A stretch of DNA of 64,000 nucleotides from Candidatus Saccharimonadales bacterium (GTDB lineage: Bacteria; Patescibacteriota; Saccharimonadia; Saccharimonadales; UBA10212): NCBI GenBank assembly GCA_035717985.1, contig DASTHW010000013.1, forward strand, positions 73,436 through 137,435, given 5' to 3'. The first letter of the stretch is position 1, and each line of letters begins with the position of its first letter. This document shows positions 1 through 12,700 of the stretch, in pieces. The position numbers and the translations under genes are program-made. The notes beneath the pieces were generated by a model. The model ran no database searches, was not told the DNA's origin, and worked only from the letters and a program-made list of their open reading frames with translations.

Positions 1-370
1 CGAAATGGACGATGATTTGGGCTAGAGCTACAACTATTAGGCCAATAACTGCAAATGTGATGGTCTTTTTAGCGCCGGCTACGGCGTTTTCGCTACCGGC
101 GCTGGTAACAAACCGCAGACCAGCCACAATTATCATTATCACGGCAATTGCTCCAGCTAGAACAGATAAGATATTGACAACATGAGCAATCGTAGCCGAC
201 AAATCGGGTCCGGCGTTAGGTGGCGGGCTAGTACAATTTGACGCCGACGAGCCGGCCACTTGGTTAACGGCACATTTGATATTGCCTACCGGCGTGTCGG
301 CTAAAGCTAAAGAAGAGCTGGCTAGTAGAGTTAAAACGGAAGACAAAATTAAAATTGTTTTTTTTATCAT
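1..370 (-). CDS. VirB2/TrbC-like T4SS pilin paralog (C-terminus cut by window edge)
   Basis: The ATG is at 368-370 (minus strand). It is absent from the ORF track because it runs off the window. My translation is MIKKTILILSSVLTLLASSSLALADTPVGNIKCAVNQVAGSSASNCTS... It shows a signal peptide and 2 Cys, then two hydrophobic helices separated by a basic loop (AGAKKTITFAVIGLIVVALAQ). The four neighbouring ORFs have the same architecture. There is a 4-nt overlap with the stop of the upstream gene. Confidence 0.6.
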   Translation of the reverse strand, partial: MIKKTILILSSVLTLLASSSLALADTPVGNIKCAVNQVAGSSASNCTSPPPNAGPDLSATIAHVVNILSVLAGAIAVIMIIVAGLRFVTSAGSENAVAGAKKTITFAVIGLIVVALAQIIVHF

Positions 371-768
371 GACAATATTTGGTCGGTTATTAGTCTAATT
401 ATAGTCCAGGCTAGGCCAATAATAATCAAGCCCACTATCGAGCTAACCATCCGTTTACGGGCATTGGCCGTACCCTCGGTACTGCCGCCGCTAGTAATTA
501 GCTGGAACCCGCTGATTAAAATCATCAGCACCGCCAGCATGCCGGCTAACACGGCTAAGATATCAACGGCAATTTGGATAATATTGACAACTGGGTTAGT
601 GGTTCCCTGGCTAGCGGCCTGCTGACAGATGGAACTGGTTTTACCGGAACCGTTCTTATAATTACAGGTCGGGGTGCTAAAAAAATTGAAGGCCAGCGCC
701 TGGCTAGCCGGCAAAATTAAAAGCCCTAGACTAAAAACGGCGGCCGCTAAAAATTTTTTAAATCGCAT
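367..768 (-). CDS. VirB2/TrbC-like T4SS pilin paralog
   Basis: 133 aa. Signal peptide ends in ASQALA. A Cys pair follows (TPTCNYKNGSGKTSSICQQ). Two TM helices flank the basic loop TANARKRMVSSIVGLIIIGLAW. This is the TrbC/VirB2 hairpin topology. Confidence 0.65.
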   Translation of the reverse strand: MRFKKFLAAAVFSLGLLILPASQALAFNFFSTPTCNYKNGSGKTSSICQQAASQGTTNPVVNIIQIAVDILAVLAGMLAVLMILISGFQLITSGGSTEGTANARKRMVSSIVGLIIIGLAWTIIRLITDQILS

Positions 769-1059
769 CTAGCTTACCCTATCAAGTACGAAGTTAACTA
801 TAGCTACGGCCGAGGCCGCTACAATGACGCCAACTAGGGCGTGGGCCAGCTGGCGCTTGGATTCCGAAATAATAGTGTCATTGCTACCGGCCCGGATATA
901 ACGAAAACCGGCAATCACCACCATCAACATGGCGATCGCCCCTACGAGCGTAAAAATGATATCTAAAATAGTCTGCAGGGTGTCACTGCCGGGGCCGCCG
1001 CTACCGCCAACCTTTGGCAGACTATGCGGACTAACTAATTGAGCCAAAAAATACAGCAT
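769..1059 (-). CDS. VirB2/TrbC-like small membrane protein (pilin paralog without Cys)
   Basis: 96 aa. Two TM helices (IIFTLVGAIAMLMVVIAGF / ALVGVIVAASAVAIVNFVL) are separated by the loop RYIRAGSNDTIISESKRQ. It abuts the neighbouring pilin genes with 0-4 nt gaps. Confidence 0.55.
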   Translation of the reverse strand: MLYFLAQLVSPHSLPKVGGSGGPGSDTLQTILDIIFTLVGAIAMLMVVIAGFRYIRAGSNDTIISESKRQLAHALVGVIVAASAVAIVNFVLDRVS

Positions 1060-1063
1060 ATAG

Positions 1064-1495
1064 CTACAGCTTATTCCCTATAAATGATACTAGCCCGCCG
1101 GCAATTAAAACCATAGCCAGTCCAATCAGCGAGTTAACTACCCGCTTTCGAGCCGAGACACCTTTTTCAGAATTACCTTGGGTAAATAAGTACTCAAAGC
1201 CGGCCACAATAATTGATATGACAGCCACGATGCCAGCTAGATATAACAGCATATCTAAAACTGCCAGGCCAATGGCCCAGGCCCCTTCCGGAAAATTCAC
1301 TCTGGGCACGCATTTGCCCAAAATATCTTTATTGCCAGTAGATATATATTCCCACCAGGTGGGGAAGCCAAAAAAGTGATGAGCCGAGTTAGCCGTATTA
1401 GGGTCGCAATTAGAGCCAACAGCCGCCATAAAAATCTGCAGTTTAACTAAAGCCGCGTACCACATCAGCCGAAAATACCCCCCGGAATTAGCCAC
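1064..1495 (-). CDS. VirB2/TrbC-like T4SS pilin paralog
   Basis: 143 aa. Contains 2 Cys (SNCDPN, GKCVPR). Two TM helices flank GNSEKGVSARKRVVNSLIGLAMV. An alternative in-frame ATG at 1465 forms an ATGA overlap with the upstream stop, so the true start is either 1495 or 1465. Confidence 0.6.
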   Translation of the reverse strand: MANSGGYFRLMWYAALVKLQIFMAAVGSNCDPNTANSAHHFFGFPTWWEYISTGNKDILGKCVPRVNFPEGAWAIGLAVLDMLLYLAGIVAVISIIVAGFEYLFTQGNSEKGVSARKRVVNSLIGLAMVLIAGGLVSFIGNKL

Positions 1496-1941
1496 TGCAG
1501 GAAGGCAAAGATAAACATAAAGACTACCAGCGCAATCACGGCATTAGCTATCCGCTTTTTGGCGTTGGCGGTCTGGGTAGAATTATCGCCGGCTATGGAG
1601 TACTGAATACCGCCAACAATAATCATGGCCGTTACAAAAATGCCGACGCCGGCGCTCAAAAAATCAACAATGATATTGATGTCTTTAGAAATCGGATTGT
1701 TGGCCGAGACGGCGTGCTGGCTCAGGCAATTATCAAATTTGTCCTCGCCACCGCCAGCCGAGCGGTTGATATTCAGGCAAGCCGTTGGCGTTTGATCCTC
1801 GCAGTCTTTCTGAGCCGTAGTATTTTTTTGATCAGCAAACTTCTGACAGGCTGGATCCACCGCTAATACTGCCGGGCTGGCCAGGCAAAAGGCTACCACT
1901 ACCGCCAAAATGATTTGTTTTAGGTTTTTTACTTTTTTCAT
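1465..1941 (-). CDS. VirB2/TrbC-like T4SS pilin paralog (4 Cys)
   Basis: The start was moved to the internal ATG at 1941 (MKKVKNLKQIILAVVVAFCLASPAVLA), which gives a clean signal peptide. The mature part has 4 Cys. Two TM helices flank TQTANAKKRIANAVIALVVFMF. Confidence 0.6.
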   Translation of the reverse strand: MKKVKNLKQIILAVVVAFCLASPAVLAVDPACQKFADQKNTTAQKDCEDQTPTACLNINRSAGGGEDKFDNCLSQHAVSANNPISKDINIIVDFLSAGVGIFVTAMIIVGGIQYSIAGDNSTQTANAKKRIANAVIALVVFMFIFAFLQWLIPGGIFG

Positions 1942-2061
1942 AACGCTTACATGAGCTTGCTTGAAATATAGCATAACCAAGCTCCAAAAGCTCTACTGGG
2001 GTGGCAACAGATTGTTAAGCTATAGTGCTTGTGCTAAAGTTTGGGTTAGTAATAATCTTTG

Positions 2062-5000
2062 ATGAGCAAATATAAAAACCTGTTTTTAATCATCCTTTTG
2101 CCGGTGGTTTTTCTGGCTACTTTTTTCGCGGTCAATCACAAGGCCCTAGCCGACAATATCAGTGACGCTAACATGAACCAAATCTGTGTCCCGCCGTACA
2201 TTTCTACCAGCCGCTCCGGCCATCACCAAATTAACGGCTGGCTAAACATAGATGTTAAAGACCGGGCTCACCTGACTGCCACCTATACGGCCGCCGGTAA
2301 CTGCGCCACACCGGCCGGCAGTGATTCCAGCTACTTCTTTGGTAATCAAACCTTCGCTCAAATTTTTCAAAATATCAGCGGTAAGGCCGGAGTTTTAGAT
2401 TTAGTAGACAACCAGGCTGATTCTGATGTCAGCTATAACGAGCCAGTCGGCTCTTCCGGCCAAGATGACACCAGGATCGACCAGTTCTCCGGCAATTTTG
2501 ACAATTTAATGCAGGATAAAACCGGCGGTCATGACGCCGTTATGAATATGGGCGACATAAAAAATGCCATTGCCAACGCCGAAGTAACTCTGGGTCTAGA
2601 GACTGACGACGTGGGCTACGGTTGCGGACCCAGCTATTGGAAGAATGAAAACTTTGTCTTAACCGACGGCAAGACCCCAGCTTGGCAGTGTGTAGATTCA
2701 ACTGACATTAGCGGTCTTGAAGGCTTTGTAATTGGCGTAGATAACTTCTCTGATTTAGATAACTTCAACATCACTTACTACGCCACTGCTAACGGCAATA
2801 CGCTGACGGTAACTCCGGTCTACAAAAACGAGCAGGGAGACCGGACTTTTACATGGTGCGGTAATCAAGGCAAATTTATCAACAAAAACTGCCAAGGTAG
2901 CTTAGTTTTGAATGCCAGCCAAAGTGATATTAACTCTCTGGGTACCGGCCAAGGCCAGTTCGCAATTAAAGACGGGAGTGGCAATACGGCTAATGTGGTA
3001 GTGGCTGGCACCGGCTCCAGCGTAGCCCAAGTCAATGGTGGCGGTGCGGTTAGCGCTACGCCTCCAGGCGGCACCAGCTCCGGCAAATCCTGCGAGGCTA
3101 ATTTTAATTTTGGCTTTGAATGGGTGGTTTGTCCTTTCCTTCGTATGCTGGACGCCGGCGCTGGCGCGCTTAATGGTTTTGTCGAAAATCAGCTGACTAT
3201 TTGTACCGGCGCTTCTGATACCACCGGGCAGTCTTGCGCTAACAATATTTTGACGCCGCAGGTACAAAATGCCTGGGCCATATTCCGCGATATCGCCTCG
3301 GCCCTGCTGGTGCTAGTCATGCTGGCCATGGTCTTTTCTCAGGCTATGGGGGGCGGCCTGCTGGACGCCTACAGCCTTAGAAAAATGCTCCCCAGGTTAG
3401 TGGCGGCCGTGATTTTGATGCAGTTATCCTGGGTGATTTTGAAATTTGCCGTTGACGTATCTAACGACTTAGGCGTAGGAATTCGAGATCTAATGTATGC
3501 GCCATTTGGCGGTCAAAGTAATATGAGCCTTCAGGGAGTGGTTAATAATGTTCTATCGGTTCACGGCGCCAAAGTTGCCGGAATAAGTGTAGCCAACGAT
3601 TCTTTTGCTTTATTCGGTGTGCTAGCTGGTTCTGTAGCTTTGGTAGCTAACCCAATCGGTCTTTTAACTTTAGGCTTTTTTGTGTTTGTCAGTCTTACTA
3701 CAGCCTTTTTGGTGCTGGTTCTGCGCAAACTGTTCATAATTATGCTGATTGTTCTGGCACCGGTGGCCTTAGTACTTTGGATACTGCCTAATACTGAAAA
3801 GTACTGGAAGATGTGGAGTTCTAACTTTTCAAAGCTTTTGGCTATGTATCCACTGATTATGGGTTTAATCGCCGCCGGGCGGATTTTTGCCTACATTACT
3901 TCCACTACCGGTAGCGGTAGCGTAACCAGTTTTGCCGATTTAGCTATCGTGCTGTTTGCTTTCTTTGCGCCTTACTTAATGCTACCCAAAGCCTTTAGCT
4001 GGGGTGGGTCGATGATGTCGGCGGCGGCCGGCCAAGTCCAAAACCGCCTACAAAAGCCGCTTATGGATAAGGGCAAGGAGGGCTTCAAGGGTATGACCGA
4101 GCGCTACCAGGGCCGGATGGGCAAAGCCTATGATCCCGGTGCTAAAGGCGTCAAAGGCTGGGGCAAAAAGGTCTTTTACAGAGTTGGGTCTGGCCACTAT
4201 AATCCACTGCCGGGCGCCCTTGGCGGTAAGCGCTCCCAGCGCCTTGCCATACAGGCTGGCGACAAATGGTCTCAAGAGCAAGACGAGCAGGCCGGAGCCA
4301 AAATTAAACGCGCCGGCGAAAAAGTGCTGGCCGAGGGCTACGATACCTACGTTAGAACTGATGATGGTAAGTATGCAAAATACCAACGTGACGCTGACGG
4401 AGAAATAATGAAAGACGCTGACGGCAAAGACATAAAAATTGAGGTAGGCTCTAAGGACGAGGCAGAGACTAAGCACCTGACCGGCGTAGCGGCTATGAAA
4501 CAAATGTGGGTCGACCTGGCCGAAGATGGCGATAAATATGAGAAGAAGATGGCAATTCGCCAGCTGACCGCTACCAGCTCCTGGCCGGAAATCCAGAGTT
4601 CATTTACTAAAAACGGTAAGCGGGTGATCGATACTGATGCCTGGGCCGATTCTATAACCACAAGCCCCGAGGATTACCCGCGGGTACTCCGAAGCCGTGT
4701 CGATGCCACGCCTCACATCGATAACGCCGCCAAGAAGGCGCTTAAGGCCGAACTTGAAAATACTGATATGGATGAGTTTGAGCAAAGACGCTTTGTTAGT
4801 GCTTTTAGGGTAGATTACGCTATTACTAAACAGCTTGACAACGAAGGCTTTGCCACTCAGAGTGATGGCTTTTGGGAAGAGGCAGCCAGAATGGCTAATA
4901 TGACAGGCGCAGACGGAGAATTAACGGCTCAAGCGCAACAGATCAGACAGCACTTGAAAGACCGCTTTTTCGCCATCCAGCAAATTGGGGGTACAGCCCC

Positions 5001-5148
5001 AGCGCAGTTACTGGGGCATTTGGCTAACGGCGGGGAACTGCAGAAAAATGTCGAATCTATATTGGGCCAAAGTGTTCAAAACTATATGCATGGGGATGGT
5101 ACACCAGGAACGCCGCCGCCCGCCCCTGAGCCAGAACCAGAGCCCTAG
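2062..5148 (+). CDS. VirB6/TrbL-like polytopic T4SS channel protein with large N-terminal exo-domain and long hydrophilic C-terminal domain
   Basis: About 1028 aa. It has a signal/anchor helix, then a Cys-containing exo-domain of roughly 340 aa. A block of at least 6 TM helices follows (about aa 400-640), then a charged tail of roughly 380 aa ending in PPPAPEPEPEP. The ATG at 2062 is preferred over the TTG at 2059. The position between the pilins and VirB3/VirB4 analogues fits VirB6. Confidence 0.6.
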   Translation: MSKYKNLFLIILLPVVFLATFFAVNHKALADNISDANMNQICVPPYISTSRSGHHQINGWLNIDVKDRAHLTATYTAAGNCATPAGSDSSYFFGNQTFAQIFQNISGKAGVLDLVDNQADSDVSYNEPVGSSGQDDTRIDQFSGNFDNLMQDKTGGHDAVMNMGDIKNAIANAEVTLGLETDDVGYGCGPSYWKNENFVLTDGKTPAWQCVDSTDISGLEGFVIGVDNFSDLDNFNITYYATANGNTLTVTPVYKNEQGDRTFTWCGNQGKFINKNCQGSLVLNASQSDINSLGTGQGQFAIKDGSGNTANVVVAGTGSSVAQVNGGGAVSATPPGGTSSGKSCEANFNFGFEWVVCPFLRMLDAGAGALNGFVENQLTICTGASDTTGQSCANNILTPQVQNAWAIFRDIASALLVLVMLAMVFSQAMGGGLLDAYSLRKMLPRLVAAVILMQLSWVILKFAVDVSNDLGVGIRDLMYAPFGGQSNMSLQGVVNNVLSVHGAKVAGISVANDSFALFGVLAGSVALVANPIGLLTLGFFVFVSLTTAFLVLVLRKLFIIMLIVLAPVALVLWILPNTEKYWKMWSSNFSKLLAMYPLIMGLIAAGRIFAYITSTTGSGSVTSFADLAIVLFAFFAPYLMLPKAFSWGGSMMSAAAGQVQNRLQKPLMDKGKEGFKGMTERYQGRMGKAYDPGAKGVKGWGKKVFYRVGSGHYNPLPGALGGKRSQRLAIQAGDKWSQEQDEQAGAKIKRAGEKVLAEGYDTYVRTDDGKYAKYQRDADGEIMKDADGKDIKIEVGSKDEAETKHLTGVAAMKQMWVDLAEDGDKYEKKMAIRQLTATSSWPEIQSSFTKNGKRVIDTDAWADSITTSPEDYPRVLRSRVDATPHIDNAAKKALKAELENTDMDEFEQRRFVSAFRVDYAITKQLDNEGFATQSDGFWEEAARMANMTGADGELTAQAQQIRQHLKDRFFAIQQIGGTAPAQLLGHLANGGELQKNVESILGQSVQNYMHGDGTPGTPPPAPEPEPEP

Positions 5149-5233
5149 ATTGATTTATATTCATAATTATGTTATTATATATCTAGCCGACGGTAAGTAG
5201 CGTTGGCTCGCTCTCCGTTTCGGAGGTAACAAC

Positions 5234-5599
5234 TTGAGCTTTGACACCACGCTAGTCATCCTCATTGCCTTGGGGCTGTGCTTTTACTTCGCTACCTCCA
5301 TCGCGGTGATGGCGGTGCGGGAGCACTTCCGCAGGCTGGTGAGCGAAAAGAAGCAGGTGGGCCACCACCTGTTCTACGGAACGCTGGCGATCCTGCTGGC
5401 GGCCTTCTTCTACTTCTGGGGCATCATCATCATGGCCACAAAGCTGAATGCCGGCCAGGAAACGGCGGTAATCATCGCCGTGATCATGCTCGGCTTTGCC
5501 CGGGCCTGCTGGCGGCGGAAGAAGAATCGCCTCATCAGCCGGCTTGCGTGCCTTGGCCTGGCGGGCCTGGCCCTGCTCCTGCTGGCCGCGGCCTTCTGA
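5234..5599 (+). CDS. Small 4-TM membrane protein encoded by a GC-rich, foreign-looking cassette
   Basis: A TTG start lies 7 nt after a GGAGG Shine-Dalgarno. The 121-aa product is all helical-hydrophobic segments with RRKKNR-type loops. Third codon positions are overwhelmingly G/C (ctg, gcc, atc, ttc), unlike the flanking genes. Confidence 0.5.
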   Translation: MSFDTTLVILIALGLCFYFATSIAVMAVREHFRRLVSEKKQVGHHLFYGTLAILLAAFFYFWGIIIMATKLNAGQETAVIIAVIMLGFARACWRRKKNRLISRLACLGLAGLALLLLAAAF

Positions 5600-5752
5600 T
5601 GGCCAGCCTTCGGGCTAGGAGCTCCGGCGGAGGTGGCACCAGAAATGGTGCACCCTCCGCCACCGTGGCAGGGATTGAGCGAACTCGCTCTCCCTGCCTC
5701 GAAAAAACGTTATCAATTGCCATAACCGTTAATCTATTAGATACTTTTACTT

Positions 5753-6760
5753 ATGGCAGTCTATAAGGTAATTCAAGATATTGAGGCTGAGGACAAACTG
5801 CTTGGCCCGCTGACTTTTAGAGGCCTGGTTTACGCCGGCGTAGCAGTACTGCTTGGCTTTATAAACTATAAACTGCTAATCAGCCCGTTAGGTGTCCTTA
5901 AGTGGCCGTTTATTTTTATCTTATTGCTCCCGATGTGCCTTTTCGGCGTACTAGCTAGCCCGCTAGGCCGCCAGCAACCGACCGAGGTCTGGCTACTGGC
6001 GCGAATTCGCTTTTTCTTAAAACCTCGTCTGCGCATTTGGGACCAATCCGGGATTAGCCAGCTGGTAAATATTACGGTGCCCAAGCGGGAGATTAAGCAG
6101 TTAACTAAAAATTTAAGCCAAAGCGAGGTAGCTAGCCGCCTGCAGGCTTTAGCCACCACCCTGGATAGCCGCGGCTGGGCGGTTAAAAACGTCAGTGTCA
6201 ACTTAAGCGCCACACCCAGCTACCTGGACGAGCTTAATTCAGACCGGCTGGTGGATGCCAGCAATGTAGTGCAAGAGGTCCCGGAGATAAACGTCCGGCC
6301 GGCCGATGATATTTTGGATGCTAAAAATAACACCACCGCTCAGAATTTTCAAACTTTGATTAATCAGGCTGAGGTAAAGCGTCGGGAGGAACTGCAAGCC
6401 CGCGTTGAGGCCGCCCGTAAGGCCGAAGCCGAGGCCGCCGAACGGGCCCGGCAGACTCAAGCCGCGGGAGCCGCGGCTATGCCGTCGGTGGCTCAAGCCC
6501 CAGCACCACAGCCAACAGCTGAAGAAGAATTCTTTACCAAGCACGCCGGCCATGACGAAAAAATCCATGATATCCGCCAAGCGCAGAGCCTGGAAGACAG
6601 AGGCAAATCAGCCATGTTGGTCCGCCGTAGTTCAAGAAGACCTACTAGAGTGACACGGCAAGGTCAAACTGCTAAACTGGAGCTAGCCCAAAGTGGTAAT
6701 GATTTAAGTGTGGCTTCTATAGCCCGGCTGGCTAATCAGCCAGGGGCTAGCCAAGCTTAA
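5753..6760 (+). CDS. PrgI-family / VirB3-like T4SS membrane protein with long charged C-terminal region
   Basis: The N-terminus is MAVYKVIQDIEAEDKLLGPLTFRGLVYAGVAVLLGF..., followed by a second TM helix. From memory this matches the PrgI-family signature (short cytosolic start, ED-K-hydrophobic-GPLT, two TMs). It lies directly upstream of VirB4. Confidence 0.55.
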   Translation: MAVYKVIQDIEAEDKLLGPLTFRGLVYAGVAVLLGFINYKLLISPLGVLKWPFIFILLLPMCLFGVLASPLGRQQPTEVWLLARIRFFLKPRLRIWDQSGISQLVNITVPKREIKQLTKNLSQSEVASRLQALATTLDSRGWAVKNVSVNLSATPSYLDELNSDRLVDASNVVQEVPEINVRPADDILDAKNNTTAQNFQTLINQAEVKRREELQARVEAARKAEAEAAERARQTQAAGAAAMPSVAQAPAPQPTAEEEFFTKHAGHDEKIHDIRQAQSLEDRGKSAMLVRRSSRRPTRVTRQGQTAKLELAQSGNDLSVASIARLANQPGASQA

Positions 6761-6797
6761 ATAGATAAACAAAAATCCGCTGGGGCGAGGGTAAAAA

Positions 6798-7622
6798 ATG
6801 GAAAACTCTCCCAATAATCCGGCTCTTGGCGCAAGCACCGCCCAACCTCCGGCTCAAGGCGGCCCCGCTCAGCCGGCTGTTAAGAATAACCCCAACAGCA
6901 CTCAAAACACCCTGCTGGTCAGCGAAGTCCGCGACGGCATTGTGATTATGAATGACGGCACTTTTCGGGCCGTAATTATGTGCAAGTCCATCAACTTTGA
7001 TCTGATGAGCCCGCAGGAAAGAGAAGCGGTAGAGTTTAGTTATCAGGGCTTTATTAACTCACTTTATTTTCCGATTCAAATTCAAATCAGAAGCCAAAAA
7101 GTAGACCTTAGACCGTATTTGGAAAAGCTGGATAAAATCCGCTCTGAGCATGAAAACATGCTACTCGCCCTTTTGATGGAAGACTACATTACCTTTCTAG
7201 GAAGTATTGCTCAGCAGACCAACATTATGGATAAGAAATTCTATGTGGTGATTGAGTATCCGGACCCCGATGAAAAGGCCCGTAGCGCCGTCAACCAGTC
7301 CAAGGGCTTTTTCAGCGGCCTGGCCGGCCTATTTACACCTAACAAATCGCCGCAGATAACTATTAATGAAGCCCTACTAGAAGCCGGCAAGACCGAGCTA
7401 CGCAACCGTGTGCAAGCGGTTATGCAGGGGCTCCAGCAGTGCGGCATCCAAAGTCTGCCGCTGGACACTCAAGAGTTGATTGAGCTTTACTACGACGCCT
7501 ACAATCCAGATACCGCCACCCGCCAGCAATTAAAAAATTTCGATGATATGAACACACCGGTAGTAACTAAGGGTACCGGACAAGCCCCCCAGCCAAAACT
7601 TGATAGGGAGGTGCCGGCCTGA
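6798..7622 (+). CDS. Protein resembling the N-terminal domain of Gram-positive VirB4-family ATPases (split virB4, part 1)
   Basis: 274 aa. The segment VSEVRDGIVIMNDGTFRAVIMCKSINFDLMSPQEREAVEFSYQGFINSLYFPIQIQIRS resembles, from memory, the N-terminal module of TrsE/PrgJ/Tn916-Orf16-type VirB4 proteins. Its stop overlaps the ATG of the next ORF (TGATG, 1 nt shared). Confidence 0.5.
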   Translation: MENSPNNPALGASTAQPPAQGGPAQPAVKNNPNSTQNTLLVSEVRDGIVIMNDGTFRAVIMCKSINFDLMSPQEREAVEFSYQGFINSLYFPIQIQIRSQKVDLRPYLEKLDKIRSEHENMLLALLMEDYITFLGSIAQQTNIMDKKFYVVIEYPDPDEKARSAVNQSKGFFSGLAGLFTPNKSPQITINEALLEAGKTELRNRVQAVMQGLQQCGIQSLPLDTQELIELYYDAYNPDTATRQQLKNFDDMNTPVVTKGTGQAPQPKLDREVPA

Positions 7623-9733
7623 TGTTGGGCATGGGTAAAAGTGAGCCCCAGGTTGACCCGGCGGTCCTAGCCCGGGCCCGGGAACAGCAAGAGGTTAATG
7701 CCGCCTTTGCTAAAGGCGTAACGGCTCTGCGTGATTTTATTGCACCTAGCTCACTGACTTTCGCCGGCAACTATTTTCAACTGGGCACCCGCTTTGCCCG
7801 GACATATTACGTTTATGGCTACCCCCGTCAGCTATATACCGGCTGGCTATCGAGCATGGTCAACCTAGATGAAGTTATCGATCTATCGATGATAATTCAC
7901 CCGGTGGACAGCCAAATCGTGCTGGAGAATCTGCGCAAAAAAGTTAGTCAGCTAGAGGCCGGCATCCGAATTGACGAAGAGGCCGGCAAGGTCCGTGATC
8001 CGGGCAAAGAGGCCGCCGTCCAAGACGCCGAGGAGATGCGCGATAAGCTCCAAGTCGGCGAGGAGCGCTTTTTCCGCTTTGGCTTTTACTTCACCATTTA
8101 CGGCGGCTCCCTGGACGAGCTGGAATTCGTCAGCCACAAGGTGGAGTCTCTGCTCGGTCAGCAGTTGGTTTACTCTAAGCCGGCTACTGCCCAGCAGGAG
8201 CAAGCCCTAAACAGCGTCATCCCGCAGTTTACCGACCAGCTTCAGATCTACCGTAACATGAACACCGGCGCTTTGAGCACCAGCTTTCCATTCACCAGCG
8301 CTGATCTGACCCAGGAAAACGGCATTTTGTATGGCATTAATATGCATAATTCCGGCCTGGTAATTTTTGACCGCTTCAGCTTAGAAAACAGCAATAGCGT
8401 AGTATTTGCTAAATCCGGCGCCGGCAAAAGCTTTACGGTCAAACTGGAAGCTCTGCGCTCCATGATGTTTGGCACCGAAATCATCATTATTGATCCGGAA
8501 AACGAATATCAAAAAATGTGCGACGCTGTGGGCGGCGCCTACGTGCGCCTTAGCCTAAATAGCGCCACCCGGATTAACCCATTTGATCTGCCCCAAGTTG
8601 TTGATTCTGAGGAGGCCGATAATCCGCTGAGGTCTAATTTGATAACTCTCCACGGTCTACTGCGCCTAATGATGGGCGGCGCCCAAGCCCAAATGCAGGC
8701 TCAGGGCGGGGCGGCCGTCATGCCGGCACTTAGCCCGGCTGAAGAAGCCGACCTGGATGCCGCCCTGATTGAAACTTACGCTAAAGCTGGCATTACCAAC
8801 GACCCGTTAACCCACGGTGCTACGCCGCCAACCGTTACCGACCTTTACGATACTTTGCTTCACATGGGCGGCACCGGCCCTCAGCTAGCCCAGCGCCTGC
8901 GTAAATATACGTCAGGCACCTTTGCCGGCATTTTCAGCCAGCAGAGCAATATCAACGTCAATAATTCGATGGTGGTCTTTAACATTCGCGATTTAGAGGA
9001 CGAACTGCGGCCGGTAGCCATGTATATTGTGCTGAATCACATCTGGAACCGGACCAAGGTTGATAAAAAACGCCGGATTATGATTGTCGACGAGGCCTGG
9101 CAGTTAATGCGCTATGAAGATAGCGCTAACTTCTTGTTCAGTCTCGCTAAACGGGCCCGCAAATATAACCTGGGCATCACTACCATTTCGCAAGACGTGG
9201 AAGATTTTATGGCTAGCCGCATGGGCCGGGCGATTGTAGCCAACGCCTCTATGCAGATACTGCTCAAACAGTCACCCAGTGCGGTTGATGTGCTGGCCGA
9301 CGTCTTTAAGCTGACCAGCGAAGAGAAAAAGCGCTTAAGCCAATTCCCGGTAGGCCAGGGCTTGTTCTTTGCCGGCCAAAATCATGTTCACATCCAAGTT
9401 ATTGCCAGCCCGACAGAGTCTGAGCTAATCAGCACCACGCCCACTGTTAATGAGCCGTTGTCAGACGCCGATATTTTGTCTAAATTTATGCCGGCCGGCT
9501 ACACGCCGGGCGCAGAAGCGGCGCCCGAGCCGATTCCCCCGGCCATCTCAAACCCGCCAGCACAGCCTTCGTCCGCACCCACCCAGCCCGCCATCACTAC
9601 CCCAGCCTCCCCAACTCCGGCTATGCCGCCAGCACAGGCTGACGCTACCACTTTATATTTGCATCCGCAGGCCGGAGTCTCTGCCAGTACCGGCACGCCA
9701 ACCCCGCCAAGCCAGCCATTGACAGGAGCCTAG
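7622..9733 (+). CDS. virB4: VirB4-family T4SS ATPase (central and ATPase domains) with Pro/Ala/Thr-rich C-terminal tail
   Basis: 703 aa. Walker A is FAKSGAGKSF and Walker B is RRIMIVDEAWQLM. The upstream motif FIAPSSLTFAGNYFQLGTRFARTYYVYGYPR is typical of VirB4/TrsE. The last 75 aa or so are low-complexity P/A/T/S. Confidence 0.9.
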   Translation: MLGMGKSEPQVDPAVLARAREQQEVNAAFAKGVTALRDFIAPSSLTFAGNYFQLGTRFARTYYVYGYPRQLYTGWLSSMVNLDEVIDLSMIIHPVDSQIVLENLRKKVSQLEAGIRIDEEAGKVRDPGKEAAVQDAEEMRDKLQVGEERFFRFGFYFTIYGGSLDELEFVSHKVESLLGQQLVYSKPATAQQEQALNSVIPQFTDQLQIYRNMNTGALSTSFPFTSADLTQENGILYGINMHNSGLVIFDRFSLENSNSVVFAKSGAGKSFTVKLEALRSMMFGTEIIIIDPENEYQKMCDAVGGAYVRLSLNSATRINPFDLPQVVDSEEADNPLRSNLITLHGLLRLMMGGAQAQMQAQGGAAVMPALSPAEEADLDAALIETYAKAGITNDPLTHGATPPTVTDLYDTLLHMGGTGPQLAQRLRKYTSGTFAGIFSQQSNINVNNSMVVFNIRDLEDELRPVAMYIVLNHIWNRTKVDKKRRIMIVDEAWQLMRYEDSANFLFSLAKRARKYNLGITTISQDVEDFMASRMGRAIVANASMQILLKQSPSAVDVLADVFKLTSEEKKRLSQFPVGQGLFFAGQNHVHIQVIASPTESELISTTPTVNEPLSDADILSKFMPAGYTPGAEAAPEPIPPAISNPPAQPSSAPTQPAITTPASPTPAMPPAQADATTLYLHPQAGVSASTGTPTPPSQPLTGA

Positions 9734-9745
9734 GCCAGACCGTCT

Positions 9746-12700
9746 ATGGCTGAACCGGCAAGACAGTTCGACGAGGAGCAGACTCCGGGTAATGCCGACT
9801 CATCTCCGCCCGGCCGGCCGGAACTTCGGGCTCTAGAAGGCGGCGGCGAAACCAGCCCGCCTGAGCGTAGCTGGTACACCGGCGACGGTAGCGATCAGAC
9901 GGATAAAGAAAAACTATCTGGCTCCGAGAACTCTCCAGCCGAATCCAAATATAAAGATCAGGTTGGCTCTGGATATAAAAATACTCAGCCCAAGAAAACG
10001 ATTCGATCGCGGCTAGCCAGTCGTAAACGTCGGATTATATTCGCCGGCATATCGGCGCTCATTGCTCTAGGTATTTCTATAGCCGGATTCTTTTTTCTTT
10101 TACCATACAAGCTTAATTTCATCATGAACGATCTAGAAAAACACTACTATTCATCTACCCAAAATGCTATGGACAAAGAAGTGGATTCTTTATTTAGTAA
10201 TTATCTTCGGAATAAGGTTTTACCCAGCCTCAGATCCGGCAAAACCTGCGGTACTTCAGTGTTATCAACCATAAATCGTAAGTGTACAACCATCGTCCAG
10301 GGAAGCGGTTTAGTGAATAAGCTCTATAGCTCTTGGTCGCAAGCCCATATGGAAAATGATTTGGCTAATAAATACGGCATAGAATTTGGGTATGAAGGTG
10401 GTAATTACTATATGAAGGCACCCGGTCTAGGTCTAGATGATACCAAATACAATATTGATGGTTTTGCAAAAGCTAGTGGCGAAAGTTTAGATGATTTTAT
10501 CAGTAAAGATCCTCAGTTAACTGGCTTCGGAAGTACTAAAGAGTTTAAGGCCGCTGTGGCGGCTAAGCTGGATACTGCCCTGCAGAATGAGTCCAGATAT
10601 ACCCAAGTAATGTTCAAGTACAAAGTCGGCAGATACCTTGAAAAGAAATTCGGCATAAAGCGGTGTATCGTTGCTTGCGATACACGCCGCGATTTTAGTG
10701 ACTGGAAAAACAAGAAAAAAGCCGCAACTTTAATCCGAGCCCAGCGTGTTCTTCAACCAAATAATCAATTACTGGCTTTTGTCCTAGGCTGTATCGGGAA
10801 AGGCGGCCCCGTCACTGGTGATTGCAGTGTATTAAAGAAGGAGGATCCATCTTCTCAGCCTGTTGAGGATCCAAATGGAGATGGCTGTACGGCCAACTGT
10901 GTAACAGGAGGCGAACCATTAAGTCCGGCCGACACTGAAATAGAGGCGACTATGGGCAACTTAGCGGCTGAATATGGTATCTCGAGCGAAGAGGACGTAG
11001 CAAAAGCCCAAAAAATTTATGATGACCTCACGGGTAAGGGGGGCTATAAAAAATATTTAGTGAGCCAGGTAGTAGATAACCTGCTATCTGGTGCCGGGCT
11101 AAGCGATGACGCATCTAAAGCAGTGGCTAACTCCGCTGGAAAATTGGTAGCAGGAGATGTTCCCGGTCTTGGCGAAGTTCTGCTAGTCGGTAAATTAAAT
11201 AGCATGGCTTTGGCGGCCGGTGCCATCTTGCCGGCTATGGGCTACGCTCTACAGACTCAAACCATGGTGCATGAGTACTCGATATACCGAACTTACTTAG
11301 ATGAATTAAAAACCGGTAATGTTTCTGCTAGCATGGTAGGCTCTTTCACGGATTCGTTAGGGCCGGGCAACCAGGATCCCGCCAATACAGATGATAGTGA
11401 AATTGGTGGAACAGCATCAGCCGAGCAAACACCTCTATATAGTAGTCTGATTGGCGACGGTAGCGGCAAAGGAAGTTCCAATTATTTATGTGATAACGGC
11501 AAACCCGTGCCAGCCGGACAGCTAGTTTGCCCAGAAGAAAAGGTTGATGTTAAAACCAAAGCCGATGCTTTATCTATAGTTAATCGTGAGCCTTCTTTTG
11601 TTAAGCAGGCCACTGGTGTAGCTAACGATTTGTCAAATTGGCTTGGTGAATTAGCTTCCAAGGTCTTCGGTATTTTACATCTTAATGGTTTACTAAATCG
11701 GGCTGTCAGCGGTTTCCTTAGCTTGACTCACATAAATGGTCTCCTGGACGATTTAGGAAATTATCTGAAGGATGAATTTCTGCCCCCCGCTATCGTGGGG
11801 CCAAATACCAGTGGCGGCCGGACATTCGACATGATAGCCGCTGGTAATGATGTATCTGCCAATGACTTTGCTCATAACGGCTTAGGCGGCGTGGCTTTAA
11901 GCCAACAACAAAGTATAGCCATTGCCAATGAACAAATGGAAAGCCAGGCTATGCAGAATAGCGATCAGCCGGTTTTAGCCCGCCTTTTTAGCACCAATGA
12001 CTCTAATTCCTTACTTGGTAAGATAGCGCTTAATATGCCCTCTGGTGATGGCGATATCAAAACAAGTCTATCCAGCATCTTTAGCAATCCACTCCGTAAG
12101 GTCTTCTCCAGCTTCGCTGGAATTTTTGGCCGACGTGCTCTAGCTACCAGTGCCCAGCCTGATCCGTTTGACATTACGCAGTACGGCTACCCCGTTAATG
12201 ATCCAATTTTCAATCAAGACCCTGAAAAGTATTGGAGCCAGCATTGCATAGCTAATGCCGAAACGGTGGCCTGGAATACCGAAGCGGCAAATGTCGCCAA
12301 CTCAAATCCTAACGGCCTATACATAGCTGATAATCTTCAGCCTTCACAAACCGGCCGGCCATCGCCCACCGGTGACCCAATGGGCACCAACCCTTGTTTA
12401 TTAATTCAGGCCGCTGTTGGGAGTGTTGGTGGAATATATAATTCTAGTCTCTTAACCAATGATGATTTAGGAGACAGTTCTTCGGTCGGCTTTAACGAAT
12501 CATCGGCGGCTCCGGGCGATACCAGTGCTTATCAAAATCCCCTACGTGACGTTCAAAAGAACGGTTCGCTGGTACCGCAAAGAGTTGACCAGGGTGTAGA
12601 CTACGGAGGCTCGGGATCGGTTTATGCTATTGGGCCTGGCACAATTTTAAATATCAGTAACAGCGGCTGGTCTGTGGATGGAGGTCCGCCAACGTTTATT

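Follow-up and report, generated by a model that had tools for sequence, protein, structure and literature searches.

The locus described here raises two linked questions, namely where a short and unusually GC-rich gene in the middle of a Saccharimonadales T4SS came from, and what it may do there. The gene, called X in the following, was found in a stretch of 64,000 nucleotides (the window, i.e., the whole stretch of DNA that was analysed), in an interval of 604 nt that reaches from the stop of a VirB6-like gene to the start of a PrgI-like (VirB3-like) gene and contains X as its single ORF (5149-5752). An initial annotation had taken this interval for a foreign cassette added between a VirB6-like and a VirB3-like gene and recently acquired from a high-GC donor, for which an actinobacterial host was the suggested candidate. 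The placement is borne out by the matches to TrbL_3 and PrgI that flank X; the fate of the proposed origin is taken up further below.

The slot and the gene within it

The features of the interval and its neighbours are collected in Table 1. The VirB6-like protein ends in a soluble extension of ~330 aa, and its gene forms the upstream limit of the slot, with X starting 86 nt past its stop; the PrgI-like gene forms the downstream limit. L001 (SRR25158356), an independent Logan assembly of the same population, agrees with the window to 100% across 8039 nt, both junctions included, so that a single assembler cannot have created the arrangement.

Table 1. Features of the X cassette and of the two genes that enclose it (positions in the window).
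Feature	Position	Strand	Description
VirB6/TrbL_3-like T4SS membrane protein	2059..5148	+	1029 aa; Pfam TrbL_3 recorded for the identical gene in L001
P1, cassette promoter-like site	5150..5178	+	TTGATT-17 nt-TATTAT, TG ahead of the -10 hexamer (scan)
5′ leader	5179..5233	+	GC 0.56; SD GGAGG at 5222-5226
X (ORF)	5234..5599	+	TTG start; 121 aa; four predicted TM helices; GC3 0.87
Hairpin A	5626..5661	+	arms GGCGGAGGTGGCACCA / TGGTGCACCCTCCGCC
Hairpin B	5664..5701	+	core 5667-5698; inner stem GAGCG/CGCTC
P2, promoter-like site	5717..5745	+	TTGCCA-17-GATACT (scan); upstream of the PrgI-like gene
PrgI (VirB3-like) protein	5753..6760	+	335 aa; Pfam PF12666, 8.9e-10, residues 5-95

The composition of X sets it apart from everything around it. 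Its GC content is 0.617, with 0.57, 0.42 and 0.87 at the three codon positions, and only 0.6% of the 366-nt windows across the 64 kb match it in GC. The two rows for which GC had initially been counted are indeed at 0.62 (5341-5400) and 0.68 (5521-5580), and the GC-rich third positions were likewise confirmed: the window's 54 long ORFs have a mean GC3 of 0.484 (sd 0.08, maximum 0.665), so that X stands about 4.8 sd out. The switch is sharp, since GC3 in blocks of 30 codons stays at 0.83-0.93 throughout X, compared with 0.37-0.57 in the tail of the VirB6-like gene (its last 180 codons) and 0.43-0.67 at the head of the PrgI-like gene, the T4SS genes neighbouring X being at 0.43-0.62 overall. Codon usage in X is of a generic high-GC, foreign-like kind, with ATC in 10/11, AAG in 5/5, CTG or CTC in 16/20 and GCC or GCG in 18/19 cases, where the background fractions for the first three are 0.28, 0.35 and 0.29. 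The protein is still rich in isoleucine (9.1%) and phenylalanine (8.3%), GC1+GC2 equals that of the allele in the related locus L082 (see below), and the amino-acid composition is not GC-shifted; the skew sits at synonymous sites, which means that amino-acid composition is not its driver.

X is a real gene, as is evident from the frame-specific periodicity of GC1/2/3, from its start and SD, which line up with the N-termini of its homologs, and from the family HMM, which recovers these X ORFs only when run against 16,597 ORFs (92 loci and the window). The SD, the TTG start and two shadow ORFs (5278..5766 on the + strand and 5535..5723 on the - strand), which are opened by the high GC, are all present as had been annotated. 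AF2 places four hydrophobic helices at residues 3-38, 45-70, 73-94 and 99-120, in a low-confidence model (pLDDT 58.7) that was built from two sequences. X is probably a small inner-membrane protein, and its basic loops RRLVSEKK and RRKKNR would fit a topology with both the N- and the C-terminus outside.

Promoter-like sites, leader and hairpins

Equivalents of P1, also TG-extended and with a 17-nt spacer, lie right behind the VirB6 stop in the related loci L056 (TTGATA-17-TAAAAT) and L092 (TTGACT-17-TAGTAT), and a P1-like site, TTGACT-17-CACTAT, was recognised by eye in L082. In the leader, the stem CTCCG-TTT-CGGAG (5213-5225) overlaps the SD of X, and an analogous CTCC-N7-GGAG can be read from the sequence of L082; the stem may have a regulatory role. 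The 3′ end of the cassette (5703-5752) is AT-rich, with a GC content of 0.26, and contains P2. Similar sites were seen by eye past hairpin B in L056 (TTGCTA..TGGTATACT) and L014 (TTGATA..TGTTATACT), which the scan did not call because their spacers are shorter.

The two hairpins that had been proposed behind the stop codon of X, neither with a T-run, are both real, although their coordinates had to be shifted by 2 nt. The region 5597-5712 folds with -65 kcal/mol, compared with -41.5 +/- 3.8 for shuffled sequences (z = -6.1; 0/200 shuffles as good). Hairpin B has an outer stem GGCAGGGA/TCCCTGCC at 5667-5674/5691-5698, and a survey of 1.5 Mb of related loci found its core, GAGYGA-N2-7-TCRCTC, nowhere but at this position in loci that carry X. 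Both of its stems vary by compensatory changes. In the inner stem, the relatives have GAGTGA/TCACTC where the window has GAGCGA/TCGCTC; in the outer stem, three lineages have GGCAGGG[GA] where L092 has GCGGCGGGC. These changes were read from individual folds, as the MAFFT-based RNAalifold alignment mis-registers hairpin B of the window. The place of hairpin A, just 5′ of hairpin B, is taken by a strong hairpin of unrelated sequence in L092 and L056 and by a weaker one in L014, the sequence being different in each lineage. An architecture that is shared in this way by the relatives makes the twin hairpins a conserved part of the module, not donor debris. No match was obtained when 4900-6000 was compared with the Rfam 15 covariance models at E <= 1.

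Hairpin B resembles intrinsic terminators and 3′ stabiliser hairpins in being a stem-loop of high GC content that closes a short transcription unit, and, as seen by eye, it is directly followed by a T-run in L014 (GTTTTTCAT) and L056 (GCTTTTCATTT), with the T-run of L092 lying 9 nt further on. It is unlike a canonical terminator in that no T-run follows either hairpin in the window, where hairpin B gives way to an A-run (tail TCGAAAAAACG) without a U-tract, and in that the strong, lineage-specific hairpin A generally precedes it. A terminator scan called hairpin B in none of the loci scanned (the window, L056, L014 and L092) because its stem has internal bulges. The cassette in sum consists of an extended -10 promoter of its own, an SD leader, a gene whose product is a predicted four-helix protein of the inner membrane, and two tandem hairpins, which most plausibly end and stabilise a short X transcript, after which P2, in the AT-rich stretch, would restart the PrgI-VirB4 genes. 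With the U-tract of hairpin B lost in the window, read-through into the PrgI-like gene is plausible.

The relatives also have, 3′ of X and in X-bearing loci only, a mini-ORF of 27-32 aa (MDKLLYRFGL..AR..R.LVN..) with its own SD, which is not present in the window. A candidate remnant behind the X stop amounts to an 8-nt likeness, TTCGGGCT or 'FGLG' in translation, w​ithout a start codon, and is unconvincing.

Relatives of X and their distribution

Searched against 5.8 billion clustered proteins, X matches only itself, and the sole database name that it bears is 'MAG TPA: hypothetical protein VFP35_02200 [Candidatus Saccharimonadales bacterium]'. HMMER over 1.84 billion representatives returned a single relative, P0002 (46% identity, E 2e-12); three further members came from scans for relatives of VirB4 (80 GTDB loci) and for those of the C-terminal domain of VirB6 (9 metagenome loci), and a profile search of a large protein database, capped below the full representative library, yielded no additional member. 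The family has five members across ~15 billion proteins, all of them in Saccharimonadales T4SS loci (Table 2). Homologs are 22-46% identical, in the same frame and with intact ORFs in five lineages, and such low identities indicate that the module is old within the clade. In all five members the gene follows a VirB6-like gene and/or precedes PrgI; the contigs of L014, L082 and L092 end at the slot, so that one side of it is visible in each.

Table 2. The five members of the X family, their surroundings and their GC3.
Locus	Length of X	Surroundings	GC3 of X	GC3 of flanking genes
Window	121 aa	see Table 1	0.87	~0.53
L082/L083 (P0002)	120 aa	on two contigs of 1.3 kb; immediately 3′ of a VirB6-like C-terminus that shares 64% identity with the window's	0.58 (L082)	0.42 (L082)
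L092 (P0003)	125 aa	behind a VirB6 C-terminus that shares 58% identity with the window's	0.68	0.42
L056 (P0004)	167 aa	flanked by TrbL_3 and PrgI; protein and gene order recur unchanged in L093-L098 (six further assemblies)	0.68	0.38-0.49
L014	154 aa	directly upstream of a PrgI-like gene	0.72	0.65-0.73

Pfam, NCBIfam and PDB, queried with X and with the five-member alignment at permissive thresholds, gave only noise, except for a match of the L056 member to DUF3040 (PF11239; 20.6 bits, E 5.5e-4), which is below the gathering cut-off of 24.7 and which X of the window does not share. DUF3040 is a mostly actinobacterial family. A comparison of the X cassette with plasmids and phages by tblastn and blastn gave no match either, and no homolog outside Saccharimonadales T4SS loci, Actinobacteria included, came from the protein sets of 5.8 billion and 1.84 billion sequences, from plasmids or from phages.

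X is present in 5 of the ~70 related lineages examined, and the absence of the cassette from most relatives was confirmed at their junctions. Where the junction is readable in GTDB relatives, VirB6 and PrgI are adjacent in ~27/57, with a gap of 4-160 nt, and in the remainder the slot holds unrelated genes of 130-770 aa. Loci with the window's VirB6 C-terminal domain may also be X-less (L084-L091), co-occurrence thus not being strict, and in four of them (L084, L085, L087 and L089) 2-37 nt separate the stop from PrgI. In L002, the closest locus by VirB4 (94% identical), the stop of the upstream gene overlaps the ATG of PrgI; divergence between this locus and the window is mosaic, with PrgI at 65%. 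X-bearing and X-less lineages are interleaved in crude NJ trees, both for VirB4 and for the C-terminal domain of VirB6, and the identity of X ranks roughly as that of its flanks does (L082 > L092). The cassette, which at least five lineages have, is a presence/absence allele in a hypervariable part of the T4SS locus.

The GC3 excess in the relatives

The GC3 of X lies above that of its flanks in 4/5 lineages, most strongly in the window; L014 shows no excess because its entire locus is GC-richer. As the excess recurs in the relatives, the skew is to be seen as a trait of the module. Its limits coincide with the transcription unit, and the flanks are unaffected.

Three general causes of such a skew were considered and set aside. 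Translational selection is unlikely, as no other gene in the 64 kb exceeds a GC3 of 0.67 and the pilin genes, which are assumed in this argument to be highly expressed, lie at 0.48-0.56. Selection for mRNA structure in the coding region is insufficient, the coding regions showing no more structure than shuffles matched for composition (z = -1.8, -0.4 and -1.9). GC-biased conversion across the whole slot is also unlikely, since the other genes found in the slot have a GC3 at or below the average of their locus.

The initial annotation had weighed against its own proposal the case in which all relatives carry the same gene at this position with an equal skew, the bias being driven by the amino acids of an ancient core gene. 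X does occupy the same position in other loci, in a minority of the relatives and with a weaker GC3 (0.58-0.72); the location of the skew at synonymous sites contradicts the amino-acid explanation.

Origin of the cassette

The reading favoured here, to which about an even chance is given, is that 5149-5752 is a self-contained accessory cassette of the Saccharimonadales T4SS which is exchanged among related loci, and that the allele in the window comes from a GC-richer relative. The cassette would have been gained, lost or replaced among related Saccharimonadales T4SS loci, and the window allele would stem from, or have been shaped in, a GC-richer relative with the same module and would not stem from the actinobacterial host. 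Foreign-like codons, patchy occurrence and mosaic divergence speak for such an exchange, and the cassette shares with horizontally acquired genomic islets the sharp break in GC and GC3 as well as the presence or absence in relatives. It differs from them in that a donor, a mobility gene and a credible target-site duplication are all lacking, in that the homologs of X are confined to one slot of one clade, and in that the GC3 excess recurs. Also to be set against an exchange is that the most GC-rich related locus reaches 0.575 GC, which is too low to explain a GC3 of 0.87, and that a GC-rich donor lineage was not found. The GC3 excess in 4/5 deeply diverged lineages fits a gene-specific bias at least equally well, and the way in which the identity of X tracks that of its flanks is compatible with vertical descent and repeated loss. 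This latter course of events, in which X would be an old resident, already there in the ancestor of this Saccharimonadales subclade, that was inherited vertically and deleted many times, its GC3 bias being kept in place by selection on the transcript or by biased repair or conversion and being strongest in the window lineage, is the less likely of the two explanations left for the bias. It would explain why GC3 exceeds that of the flanks in four lineages despite the low identity of the proteins, why the limits of the skew match the transcription unit exactly, why the amino-acid composition is unshifted, and why the divergence of X ranks with that of the flanks. The three comparisons given above (no second gene with such a GC3 in the window, coding regions that are not unusually structured, other occupants of the slot without enrichment) count against it, every loss must have left VirB6 and PrgI neatly adjacent, and to our knowledge there is no mechanism that would produce an offset of 0.35 in the GC3 of one 366-nt gene.

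The origin that had been proposed initially, a recent transfer from a high-GC donor outside the clade (e.g., the actinobacterial host) that landed by chance in a secretion operon, is very improbable in the light of the searches. The high-GC codon usage, the closest relatives without the cassette and the sub-threshold DUF3040 match of L056 (20.6 vs 24.7 bits) would agree with it, but the window's own X lacks this match, no search gave a homolog beyond Saccharimonadales T4SS loci, and the four relatives all sit in one slot with a common promoter and hairpin architecture. An integrase is absent as well, and flanking direct repeats are limited to one 10-mer, CTCGCTCTCC (5207/5684), which was rejected as a target-site duplication, as its copies lie inside the leader and hairpin B, off the boundaries of the empty site; short two-copy repeats of this kind are often chance matches. 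Least probable of all is that the segment is a decaying remnant, a non-coding structured element with an open frame owed to its GC content, or a chimeric assembly. The long shadow ORFs in other frames, the missing mini-ORF and terminator T-run of the window copy and the low confidence of the AF2 model could be cited in its favour; yet the GC1/2/3 pattern is frame-specific, the protein is conserved with intact ORFs in five lineages, six assemblies made from different runs carry the L056-type allele in identical form, and the two assemblies of the window's population are 100% identical.

Possible function of X

The proposed exchange of an accessory cassette among related loci leaves the role of its product to be considered, and here the neighbourhood is suggestive. 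Entry-exclusion genes abut the genes of VirB6 homologs and target their products, as in the case of TraS of F next to traG, of Eex of SXT/R391 with TraG, and of the exclusion genes of IncP, IncW and IncN plasmids by VirB6 homologs (PMC11493245). X would most likely be a specificity or protection factor of this TraS/Eex-like kind, although this is argued by analogy: like those proteins it is small, polytopic and hydrophobic, its gene adjoins that of a VirB6 homolog (also in L082, L092 and L056), it varies between related systems, and it diverges faster than the core (46% identity in L082, compared with 64% for the VirB6 C-terminus). Unlike them, it resembles none of the exclusion families in sequence when compared with Pfam, NCBIfam and PDB, and the X gene is missing from the majority of related T4SS loci. 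The initial annotation had suggested an exclusion, immunity or adaptor component, and the position beside a VirB6 homolog would fit each of these; an immunity or adaptor role may be entertained equally with exclusion. In any of these roles, X might act at the membrane with or on the VirB6/VirB3/VirB4 translocon.

Monoderm (MPF_FATA) conjugation systems also have conserved small accessory proteins in the membrane, e.g., ICEBs1 ConC and pCW3 TcpD, which are short TM proteins whose genes lie among those for VirB6, VirB3 and VirB4 in Gram-positive-type T4SSs. X is like them a short TM protein encoded among such genes, and unlike them it occurs in 5 of ~70 lineages, comes with a promoter and a terminator-like hairpin of its own, and has no homology to them that could be detected. 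The T4SSs of Patescibacteria are homologous to those of the Gram-positive type, and are chromosomal, MPF_FATA-like and mostly without a relaxase and a coupling protein (PMC12102498). Given these traits, classical conjugative entry exclusion may not apply, and any exclusion by X would be a protection of, or discrimination between, epibiont cells, not plasmids. A bolder and, as it stands, doubtful extension is that the cassette serves kin discrimination, exclusion or self-protection and is the first such module to be recognised in the Patescibacteria T4SS, a machine reported to be essential for epibiotic growth. It would be a self-contained unit of promoter, 4-TM protein, twin hairpins and restart promoter, joined in the relatives by the mini-peptide, and would be swapped between lineages at the VirB6/VirB3 junction. 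Its GC3 excess would then arise from a gene-specific process, e.g., repeated exchange out of a GC-rich reservoir or biased conversion, and not from one transfer event.

Implications

Few systems have been linked by experiment to the epibiotic way of life of Saccharibacteria, and the T4SS is one of them (PMC12102498 and work cited therein). The X cassette sits in it where conjugative systems keep their exclusion genes, which makes X a candidate for a factor that tunes the targets of the T4SS or protects its producer. The synonymous GC excess, being restricted to one small gene and recurring in its deeply diverged alleles, offers a clean case in which amelioration, selection and biased conversion may be separated. 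If neither of these ideas holds, X would be an orphan accessory gene of limited reach with five known members. The cassette is in any case more structured than the initial annotation had it, being a five-member orphan module with a conserved promoter and hairpin architecture in a fixed slot of the Saccharimonadales T4SS.

The GC-Rich Four-TM Gene and Its Surroundings

The GC-rich 121-aa four-TM gene contains an internal direct repeat of 21 nt (window 5391-5411 and 5577-5597; 81% identical) whose copies are translated as ILLAAFF (TM2) and LLLAAAF (TM4), and which may be the vestige of an internal 2+2 TM duplication. The gene is preceded by a short stem, CTCCG-TTT-CGGAG (window 5213-5225), in which an anti-SD sequence pairs with the SD of the gene, and a counterpart, CTCC-N7-GGAG, was seen at approximately 795-810 of L082, one of the relatives carrying the gene. 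Such a stem could serve translational control, or could have arisen by chance.

Immediately 3′ of the gene, a conserved mini-ORF of 27-32 aa with an SD of its own was found in four related T4SS loci (consensus M/L-DKLLYRFGL..F..AR..R.LVN..). It is restricted to loci bearing the four-TM gene, is absent from the window copy of the cassette, and its product had no match in Pfam.

Coordinates of the mini-ORF 3′ of the four-TM gene
Locus	Position
L082	1221-1304
L056	7765-7860
L014	507-596
L092	1157-1255

In many relatives without the four-TM gene, the slot between the VirB6-like and PrgI genes is filled by a different gene of ~240-325 aa (L031, L034, L048, L052, L077, L079, L072 and L063), with a GC3 that does not exceed the average of its locus. 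Two other related loci, L002 (DATKKU010000027.1) and L036 (DATLRC010000014.1), lie on Saccharimonadales-type T4SS contigs whose MAGs bear the labels Candidatus Binatia and Candidatus Dormiibacterota, a placement that is probably due to mis-binning.

Neighboring Genes and Divergence along the Locus

The VirB6-like protein carries a soluble C-terminal extension of ~330 aa (aa ~700-1029; window 4160-5148) ending in a Pro-rich tail; its residues 770-1010 (window 4366-5088) are 48-64% conserved in some relatives only (L082, L084-L092); in most others, no counterpart was detectable. In the 335-aa PrgI/VirB3-like protein (window 5753-6760), the Pfam PrgI domain is limited to residues 5-95, the remainder being a long and charged extension rich in Ala and Gln. 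The opposite strand carries, upstream at window 367-1980 (-), a tandem array of four T4SS_pilin (VirB2-like) paralogues, and the longer contig of L001, an independent assembly 100% identical to the window over 8039 nt, has a run of seven (339-3330).

The second-ranked GC-rich spot of the window, at 9401-9947 (GC up to 0.67), covers the C-terminal tail of VirB4, which is rich in Pro, Ala and Thr, together with the beginning of the following 1100-aa ORF, so that its bias is amino-acid-driven, unlike that of the four-TM gene. When window 5753-9733 was compared with L002, the closest relative by VirB4, the identity was found to be mosaic, with 94% for VirB4, 80% for the TraC-like protein and 65% for PrgI, a pattern of sequence divergence which suggests recombination inside the T4SS locus.
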